Sequence record: PV611058
Origin: Escherichia phage WPEC3
Reading direction: 5' to 3' (one strand)
DNA length: 64,000 bases
A model generated the notes under the pieces. It did not search any database. It saw nothing but the letters and a program-made list of their open reading frames with translations, and was not told where the DNA came from. Every line of letters begins with the position of its first letter. Positions within the stretch are counted from its first letter, which is position 1. A program made the position numbers and the translations under genes. Positions 56,972 through 57,333 of the stretch are shown here, one piece after another.

Positions 56972-57333
56972 ATCACCAACTTTAATTAAAAAAATGGATG
57001 GTGACGCTTTTAAACGCCGCTGTTAATTCAGCTTTATAACCACCCGTTTTAACTTGCCTTTCGGCTACCTTGACGTGGGGCGTACAGGCTACTAAAAGCA
57101 ACTACTGTAAACATATTTCCACGCCTTACCCTTTTAAATAAAAGTCCATCCGGTTTTCCAGTTTGGTGAAGGATAGTCACCTCTAGTTTAAACCTGCTAG
57201 TCAAGTAATAATTGCCTATCGTCCAATTATCAAACCCGTCTAGGTTAACATTCACCACTTCCTAGAGTACCAGAGATCTTGTTCTGGATTGCATCGACGT
57301 AACTTACACCATATACGTCTGATTGTGGAATTC

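Follow-up and report, generated by a model that had tools for sequence, protein, structure and literature searches.

The window analysed here is a stretch of 64,000 nucleotides (nt) from Escherichia phage WPEC3 (sequence record PV611058), and the subject is an island between the open reading frames (ORFs) at 56594-56971 and 57359-57724. This island very probably contains two structured non-coding RNAs, RNA A and RNA B, each with an independent gene and transcribed leftward from a promoter at 57362..57334; RNA A would be processed and stable and would act in trans. The fold of RNA A has been kept by compensatory substitutions across five deep clades and is under selection, and RNA A is a previously undescribed RNA family, with no homology to the RNAs of phages T4 and T5 and no Rfam model. 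To judge from sequence comparisons, it appears to behave as a discrete cassette, which virulent phages of unrelated kinds gain, lose and exchange. RNA B is a second, lineage-restricted structured RNA that is less well supported, its evidence being thinner than that for RNA A. The elements of the island and its borders are these.

57143..57333, minus strand: RNA A, a structured non-coding RNA of 191 nt (covariance model, covariation, homologues)
57129..57142, minus strand: A/U-rich linker UUUAUUUAAAAGGG between RNA A and RNA B
about 56988..57128, minus strand: RNA B, a second structured RNA of ~140 nt (folding and a two-genus comparison)
57362..57334, minus strand: sigma-70-type promoter, TTGACT (57362-57357), 17-nt spacer, TATAAT (57339-57334)
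57049..57258, minus strand: spurious ORF of 69 amino acids (aa) with a GTG start, straddling RNA A and RNA B
56594-56971, minus strand: flanking ORF, PHROG family phrog_38341 (1.5e-76)
57359-57724, minus strand: flanking ORF, PHROG family phrog_34619 (1.9e-60)

By megablast the DNA of the window is the transfer RNA (tRNA) region of a jumbo coliphage of the 121Q/PBECO4 group, genus Asteriusvirus, with genomes of ~350 kb. With nothing but the island as query, a sensitive blastn search matches query positions 175-361 (window 57146-57332) to unannotated DNA in phages that are otherwise nucleotide-unrelated to Asteriusvirus. At 84-93% identity these are Proteus phages PM2 and Pm5461, Morganella phage vB_Mm5 and Shigella phage SdyM_006 (T4-like Bragavirus relatives), together with Proteus phages 1, 2 and M4H10_20 (T5-like Novosibvirus); weaker matches lie in Klebsiella phage KP13-16 (Stephanstirmvirinae) and Aeromonas phage avDM6. 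The carriers belong to at least seven genera, namely Asteriusvirus, Alcyoneusvirus, Bragavirus, Novosibvirus, that of one Stephanstirmvirinae phage, and two genera of Aeromonas T4-like phages, ~20 of which have RNA A, and in all of them its length is 183-201 nt. The covariance models match the RNA A of the window with 240 bits and 218 bits, and give one match per phage locus except in contig L027, which has two. A pattern scan of metagenomes placed RNA A in five contigs, and one of IMG/VR returned isolate genomes, three chance matches (L039-L041) and one new deep clade, represented by the 120-kb uncultured viral contig L038. Outside phages, blastn finds no match in 5,426 E. coli genomes or a plasmid collection, and a pattern scan of 185,579 species, with one bacterial or archaeal genome each, gave a single match, in a Desulfotomaculum metagenome-assembled genome, that is due to chance. 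As to contig L027 (ERZ808232 NODE-1756), it is extremely A+T-rich, with low-complexity Asn/Glu-rich ORFs, and its two divergent RNA A copies flank a tRNA-Arg(ACG).

None of the ~15 GenBank records inspected, out of ~65 carriers, annotates an RNA feature at this position. Several have a spurious 'hypothetical protein' there, and in the record of Aeromonas phage 65 a hypothetical protein overlaps just the 5' end of RNA A. Literature searches found no description of RNA A, and the fEgEco12 genome paper mentions tRNAs alone for the region.

The structure of RNA A was derived by hand as a set of nested helices on 11 enteric-type sequences, from which a covariance model was built and then used to align all homologues. 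The final alignment holds 22 distinct sequences, and the structure tested on it comprises nine helices with 47 pairs in all; three of the helices are pseudoknots. Standard pairs occupy 97.9% of cells across the 22 sequences, compared with 26-40% when the 3' partners are slid by 1-3 columns, and changes on both sides are seen at 32 of the 47 pairs, compared with 5-16 in the slid versions. None of 500 shuffles matched the observed values on any of five measures, and an earlier alignment gave the same covariation picture. L038, which was found after the model had been built, retains every helix with new pair types, such as GGUCU/AGACC. The helices are listed here in 5' to 3' order.

57255..57328, minus strand: helix P1 (pseudoknot 1), CCAC (57328-57325) with GUGG (57258-57255) in the loop of hairpin d; 95% of cells paired, the outer pair alternating between CG and GC (variant GCAC/GUGC)
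57296..57319, minus strand: hairpin b, GACGUA (57319-57314) with UACGUC (57301-57296); six of six pairs compensatory, conserved loop motif A-Y-G-R-Y-G-U-A
57270..57287, minus strand: hairpin c, CCAGA (57287-57283) with UCUGG (57274-57270); four of five pairs compensatory, 98% paired, stem-loop length differing among lineages
57239..57266, minus strand: hairpin d, UCUAGG (57266-57261) with CCUAGA (57244-57239); six of six pairs compensatory, 99% paired
57207..57231, minus strand: hairpin e, GAUAAUUG (57231-57224) with CAAUUAUU (57214-57207); seven of eight pairs compensatory, loop GACGAUA invariant in all aligned sequences
57192..57206, minus strand: hairpin f, ACUUG (57206-57202) with CAGGU (57196-57192); 99% paired
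57183..57200, minus strand: pseudoknot 2 (PK2), loop CUAG (57200-57197) with CUAG (57186-57183); 100% paired, variants CUGG/CCAG, CAAG/CUUG and CAGG/CUUG
57165..57181, minus strand: hairpin g, GGUGA (57181-57177) with UCACC (57169-57165); 100% paired, one position showing GC, AU, UA and CG
57144..57174, minus strand: pseudoknot 3 (PK3), loop AUCC (57174-57171) with the 3' tail GGAC (57147-57144); 98% paired, variants GUCC/GGAC, ACCC/GGGU, GCCC/GGGC, AUCC/GGAU and UUCC/GGAA

The 5' domain is thus a pseudoknot of P1 and hairpin d that encloses hairpins b and c, and a conserved CGGGWUU joiner leads from hairpin d to hairpin e. The 3' part consists of two consecutive H-type pseudoknots, f/PK2 followed by g/PK3. 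PK2 has a first loop of 1 nt, an A-rich third loop and its partner CUAG 5 nt past stem f, and PK3 ties the 3' end. About 50 of the ~190 nt are invariant. By eye, and in a register shift that lies outside the model, P1 is also present as CUCA/UGAG in KP13-16 and as CUACA/UGUAG in L038. Loop b (YGU) may touch loop e (ACG) through 3 bp; the variation at Y fits such a contact, and loop e is invariant. Two other structures were discarded. Helix h, a local CUGG-AAAA-CCGG hairpin near the 3' end, is conserved neither in the Aeromonas clade nor in L038, and the long-range CCUA/UGGG and CUAG/CUGG pairs proposed by RNAalifold on the raw MAFFT alignment break in divergent members and were replaced by d, PK2 and PK3.

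The setting of RNA A in the window agrees in every descriptive element with the original prediction, which had pointed to a GC-elevated, inverted-repeat-rich gap holding one larger ORF and facing a consensus minus-strand promoter. The gap between the flanking ORFs is ~387 nt, G+C is 0.40-0.43 across 57000-57299 compared with 0.29-0.33 in the flanks, inverted repeats are present, and ORF 57049-57258 is the sole ORF of at least 60 aa, although smaller ones of 27-39 aa also occur. The window has six tRNA genes, all on the minus strand, called by ARAGORN, and the same six are the only matches in the window at Rfam gathering thresholds. One of these, the tRNA-Ser at 55580-55671, has the unusual anticodon ACU (A34), in agreement with the 121Q annotation of a tRNA-Ser(act).

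The promoter matches the consensus at 11 of 12 hexamer positions, has a TG-extended -10, and overlaps the stop codon of ORF 57359-57724. With consensus hexamers, the right spacing and a position directly upstream of RNA A, it is a predicted sigma-70 promoter. It is kept in relatives that have no RNA A (G17 and JNE01). The promoter together with its spacer AAATAGTTCAGTACTG recurs on the minus strand at 55710..55682 and 56603..56575, so that three matches are found compared with 0.01 expected by chance, and a variant with a 16-nt spacer lies on the same strand at 57783..57756. Retention of the spacer suggests a bound regulator or a recent duplication. We note that the spacer contains the palindrome CAGTACTG, and that one copy of the promoter cassette (55682-55710, 56575-56603, 57334-57362 and 57756-57783) stands ahead of every small gene, tRNA or RNA of the stretch. 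Farther along the minus strand are three tandem, overlapping and paralogous ORFs of 54 aa (57794-57958, 57955-58119 and 58116-58280), each of which begins MTHEEWM and none of which belongs to a Pfam family.

Outside Asteriusvirus, blastn homology to window 56972-57136 is confined to Klebsiella RaK2-type jumbo phages (Alcyoneusvirus). RNA B folds into three parts: an irregular long hairpin (57125-57119 with 57078-57072), a second hairpin capped by GAAA and, at the end, a three-way element whose closing stem pairs GGGUGGU (57045-57039) with ACCAUCC (57002-56996). After this closing stem come an A and then U7 (56994-56988), a U-run that is interrupted in RaK2; a simple terminator scan misses the stem because it encloses two hairpins. 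The folding score is z = -3.2, and the minimum free energy (MFE) fold is the same as the consensus fold. Between Asteriusvirus and Alcyoneusvirus there are 40 pairs, with two compensatory changes and several one-sided G-U to A-U changes, and a 2-nt deletion falls within an apical loop. RaK2-type phages have a promoter of their own inserted between RNA A and RNA B, and RNA B in L025 also has its own promoter. Because JNE01 has the promoter and RNA B but not RNA A, and the RaK2 type has a separate promoter, RNA B is a separate unit. The original prediction of one small stable RNA in the island was therefore right about the RNA and wrong about the number, the two being separable; it is the promoter-proximal 191 nt that give the structured-RNA reading its firm footing.

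Several observations weigh against the interpretation of the island as two RNA genes with RNA A stable and trans-acting. RNA A alone folds at z = -0.93, and its MFE structure differs from the fold that covariation backs. Just ~5 deep clades exist, and the counts of covarying cells are inflated because these clades share ancestry. An all-against-all scan yields hundreds of spurious, isolated 'covarying' column pairs and is uninformative for tertiary pairs, since with few clades phylogeny alone generates them. RNA B is backed by two clades and just the two compensatory pairs. In the window the -10 hexamer ends 5 nt ahead of the CCAC of P1, so that a canonical start 7 nt downstream would drop the first C of the helix (starts in the range of 6-8 nt lose 0-2 nt); in RaK2-type phages and contig L024 the promoter is 5-8 nt farther upstream of RNA A than in the window. 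Finally, several Asteriusvirus isolates have no RNA A, which is therefore dispensable for growth on laboratory hosts. The structural case for RNA A rests on contiguous helices and slid controls. Single-sequence folding, which for the whole island gives z = -2.3, is weak evidence, and it is the comparative data, not the compositional ones, that put the feature beyond chance.

An Rfam/Infernal scan, proposed with the original prediction as its check, does not furnish the proof: it was run and was negative, and RNA A was established de novo. Among the 4227 models of Rfam 15 none matches RNA A at gathering threshold in the window, and with the window copy and two divergent homologues searched at expectation values (E) up to 10 there were unrelated chance matches alone. 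Neither ARAGORN nor the Rfam model RF00005, including matches with E up to 10, detects a tRNA, tRNA-like sequence or transfer-messenger RNA in 56972-57358, and no ribozyme or group I intron model of Rfam matches RNA A with E up to 10. The original prediction had drawn an analogy to the small RNAs of T4, which holds for the kind of RNA but not for homology. Neither covariance model matches T4 66000-76000, the sequences of rnaC and rnaD are dissimilar to RNA A by eye, and the phage is an Asteriusvirus and not a T4 relative. A candidate homologue among the T5 stable RNAs was likewise rejected: the best score, with filters off, is 11 bits, the alignment is poor, and it falls inside rnaX. This match (L034 19411-19613, within the 719-nt 'RNAX', with a rough E of 0.02) is taken as chance because of the poor alignment and because an improved model does not recover it. 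The related jumbo phage PA5oct has two abundant RNAs, ncRNA001 and ncRNA002, that were defined by RNA-seq (PMC7318152). RNA A does not match either of them.

In most other lineages RNA A fills a gap in a tRNA array and lies on the tRNA strand, and in the window it is likewise in the tRNA region, yet between two ORFs. The neighbours, in the direction of transcription, are as follows.

PM2 and SdyM_006: tRNA-Gly upstream, tRNA-Asp downstream
Proteus phage 1: tRNA-Leu upstream, tRNA-Ser downstream
KP13-16: tRNA-Leu upstream, tRNA-Ser downstream
Aeromonas phages avDM6, AP1 and P19: tRNA-Pro upstream, tRNA-Thr downstream
vB_Mm5: coding sequence (CDS) upstream, tRNA-Glu downstream

In Aeromonas phage 65 two annotated hypothetical CDSs separate the tRNA-Pro from RNA A. 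The conserved block begins 4-5 nt past the encoded CCA of the upstream tRNA, and the distance from its end to the next tRNA is 5-13 nt in four lineages (PM2, SdyM_006, Proteus phage 1 and vB_Mm5). In the vB_Mm5 record (L019, PP397179.1) all tRNAs are annotated on the strand opposite to the ARAGORN calls, which is probably an error of the deposit. Other unannotated gaps of 130-400 nt in these tRNA arrays, in PM2 (L004 4110-4472 and 2763-3158) and avDM6 (L008 2755-3163), may hold further RNAs. In metagenome contig L024 (JACCDR011713278.1) an ORF-less, promoter-to-promoter cassette of ~160 nt lies just downstream of RNA A on the transcribed strand, and its long closing helix AUCAACGGUGAGUAACAUUG ... 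CAAUGUUACUCACCAUUGAU suggests another small RNA gene.

Taking the anatomy of these loci together with what is established for transcripts of the T4 tRNA cluster, we propose the following course of events. RNA A and RNA B would be transcribed leftward from the promoter at 57362..57334, which is of an early type, and host tRNA-maturation nucleases would cut RNA A out of the primary transcript, with an RNase E-type cut in the AAUU linker past the upstream CCA and RNase P cutting where the next tRNA begins, after which exonucleases would trim the 3' side to PK3. RNA A would accumulate as a nuclease-resistant small stable RNA, and its persistence would follow from both ends being locked in pseudoknots; RNA B would end the transcription unit with its stem and U-run.

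What RNA A might do can be put forward with a good deal less assurance. One tentative suggestion is that it acts in trans by binding a host protein or ligand, or one widely shared among phages, as a mimic, decoy or sponge; a decoy could serve an accessory function in host takeover or counter-defence. Action on a shared component is suggested because RNA A is dispensable in some isolates, highly constrained, and common to phages with unrelated virions and replication systems. These phages infect Enterobacterales and Aeromonas. Since RNA A is found in Straboviridae, Demerecviridae and Stephanstirmvirinae as well as in two jumbo-phage genera, the target of its function is probably a feature that the hosts share and not the machinery of a single phage. 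It is also conceivable, and we hold it just as loosely, that RNA A is the founder of a new class of complex-folded functional RNAs, a ribozyme or a molecular mimic binding some conserved gamma-proteobacterial component, which unrelated virulent phages would trade alongside tRNAs as an accessory gene made of RNA; the targets that such a mimic might have are the translation and tRNA machinery or an RNA-targeting defence nuclease.

The arrangement of the loci also invites a cis-acting role, either as a processive antitermination element modifying the RNA polymerase that transcribes it, as HK022 put and the pseudoknotted EAR do, or as a platform for the processing or stability of tRNAs. RNA A stands directly behind a strong promoter in the window, in L024 and in RaK2-type phages, and elsewhere lies within long tRNA operons, with the next tRNA close by in the four lineages noted above; in the window RNA B comes after it and, just before the next ORF, ends in a terminator-like stem and U7. 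We nevertheless consider such a role unlikely. What follows RNA A is inconsistent, being a varied tRNA, a promoter (in the Aeromonas phages), RNA B or a tRNA remnant, and L027 has copies on both sides of one tRNA. Moreover, the known put and EAR elements are smaller and give no Rfam match, and three pseudoknots with ~50 invariant positions exceed what a processing signal needs.

A ribozyme of a new class, self-cleaving or catalysing some step of tRNA maturation or repair, is less probable again and would be a surprise. The multi-pseudoknot fold and its many invariant unpaired nucleotides (the GACGAUA loop, CGGGWUU, GAGGU and A-rich linkers) speak for it, and the boundaries of RNA A coincide with tRNA ends. 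Ribozymes of the hepatitis delta virus-like 'theta' type adjoin tRNAs in gut phages, and T4-like phages have enzymes of RNA repair that can heal ends of the ribozyme type. Against this stand the negative search with Rfam ribozyme and intron models, the promoter-driven copies that have no upstream tRNA to process, and the failure to find a conserved candidate cleavage site.

We give hardly any credence to the island being protein-coding, through the 69-aa ORF, a 27-aa ORF at 57252-57335 or a 21-aa ORF within RNA B. None of the five Asteriusvirus sequences tested (~98% identical) has the 69-aa ORF interrupted, and GenBank records treat the island variously, some listing this ORF as a hypothetical protein, 121Q listing the 27-aa ORF, and many listing nothing. 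However, outside Asteriusvirus ORF 57049-57258 is cut by a stop after 16 codons in RaK2 and K64-1, after 2 in PM2 and after 10 in vB_Mm5, and where the five Asteriusvirus copies differ within it, at seven nucleotides, every difference alters the amino acid. Substitutions in RNA A track base-pairing and not codon position. It has no Pfam or PHROG family, whereas both flanking ORFs have PHROG families; conserved protein homologues, which the original prediction had named, together with normal codon bias and no structured-RNA match, as the finding that would overturn it, are not seen in these collections. Because it is broken outside Asteriusvirus and spans two modules that occur separately, ORF 57049-57258 is not a gene. 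The start codon of the 27-aa ORF lies inside the promoter -10 and is missing where a tRNA precedes RNA A, and the 21-codon ORF is frameshifted in RaK2, by the 2-nt deletion in the apical loop of RNA B, and meets a stop at codon 4 in K64-1. As read from the sequences, the RNA A region is not translated.

The view of RNA A as a discrete cassette draws on its gain, loss and exchange. The blastn homology stops at the ends of the RNA, and identity is, on the pairwise values, discordant with phage taxonomy: Asteriusvirus and Bragavirus PM2 copies are 90% identical, SdyM_006, a Bragavirus, is 88% identical to Novosibvirus and 87% to PM2, and the deep clades share 53-59%. The original prediction had offered a horizontally acquired element as its other reading of the island, and the occurrence of RNA A at 82-94% identity in unrelated phage genera, with homology ending at the RNA ends, bears this out. 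Close relatives of WPEC3 differ in what follows the promoter.

This window (Asteriusvirus): promoter, RNA A, RNA B
G17: promoter and RNA A up to its nt 37, the remainder removed by a deletion that reaches into the next ORF
JNE01: promoter and RNA B, no RNA A
EJP2: promoter, RNA A, then tRNA-Ser; no RNA B

The G17 remnant (L031 1787-1862) is fused to the start of the next ORF and still scores 24.6 bits with the covariance model. In KP13-16 the tRNA behind RNA A is present only as its 3' half, which starts at the anticodon arm (L007 2434-2497); in FBKp34 (L036 3004-3081) the same tRNA is intact, with a tRNA-Ser 6 nt away and no RNA A. The recombination junction between these two phages falls within the anticodon stem-loop. 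Homing-endonuclease genes are frequent neighbours of RNA A, and homing endonucleases are a plausible vehicle for its exchange. In the window an HNH/NUMOD4 homing-endonuclease ORF lies on the minus strand at 55734-56258 between tRNA genes; 121Q has no HNH/NUMOD4 ORF at that position, and its tRNAs are contiguous. The HNH/NUMOD4 ORF probably drives the shuffling of cassettes here. That the island is functionless, decayed tRNA-cluster DNA, whether tRNA pseudogenes or the scar of a homing endonuclease, might be read from the tRNA half beside RNA A in KP13-16, the truncated remnant in G17, and the standing of these phages' tRNA regions as recombination hot spots, where genes for HNH and Seg endonucleases lie close by, but it is scarcely credible for an island that has no tRNA signal by ARAGORN or the Rfam tRNA model (E up to 10) and whose RNA holds its length and keeps its helices by compensatory changes in clades that differ this much.

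Small stable RNAs of phage tRNA clusters were first described in the 1970s, and the kind of RNA found here is old (T4 species 1 and 2, and the T5 RNAs), while the RNA A family is new. What sets it apart from these precedents is the triple-pseudoknot architecture, an occurrence in several phage families and the signs that it was exchanged recently. Three pseudoknots and ~50 invariant positions in 190 nt represent a degree of constraint that usually indicates a demanding biochemical role. Nature also provides controls, in Asteriusvirus isolates that have both RNAs, RNA A only, RNA B only or neither, and in the KP13-16/FBKp34 pair with and without RNA A.

The nearest parallels are rnaC (species 1, 139 nt) and rnaD (species 2, 119 nt) of T4, which lie in the T4 tRNA cluster, on the tRNA strand and abutting tRNAs, and which are excised from tRNA precursor transcripts. 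RNA A homologues are similarly encoded in tRNA clusters, on the tRNA strand and abutting tRNAs, although RNA A is longer and pseudoknotted, has no counterpart of the T-arm-like ccgggttcgaatcccgg stretch of rnaC, and spans phage families, whereas rnaC and rnaD are confined to T-even phages. The T5 record lists eight 'stable RNA with unknown functions' (RNAI, RNAIII, RNA1, RNA2, RNA2H, RNAIV, RNA3 and RNAX), which are interspersed with tRNA genes and early promoters, and of these RNA2H, at 172 nt, is close to RNA A in size. The T5-like Novosibvirus has RNA A in the region equivalent to that of the T5 stable RNAs, although T5 itself has no convincing match.

Other complex RNAs offer looser comparisons. 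GOLLD and ROOL are likewise RNAs with complex folds and no known function, common in phages and prophages and often beside tRNA genes; they are ~500-800 nt long, occur mostly in Gram-positive and uncultured lineages, and form multimers. RNA A is several-fold smaller and has no Rfam match to either. The intergenic-region (IGR) internal ribosome entry site (IRES) of dicistroviruses (type 6) has ~190 nt, three pseudoknots and two hairpins with conserved loops, and acts by mimicry of tRNA and mRNA, as a eukaryotic RNA-virus element placed directly before an ORF. The likeness of RNA A to it is an architectural analogy alone, by description, for which PMC13273307 gave the lead. Unlike the IGR IRES, RNA A is not consistently followed by an ORF; the two are dissimilar in sequence, and no Rfam IRES model matches RNA A. 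A last comparison is with the counter-defence RNAs of phages, which include pseudo-ToxI antitoxin mimics, CRISPR-repeat mimic RNAs and replacement tRNAs, and which are mobile and highly expressed and serve as decoys or substitutes; type III antitoxin RNAs are themselves pseudoknotted. Although RNA A has no repeat structure and no similarity to ToxI or CRISPR repeats, it shares with these RNAs an accessory and horizontally mobile character.

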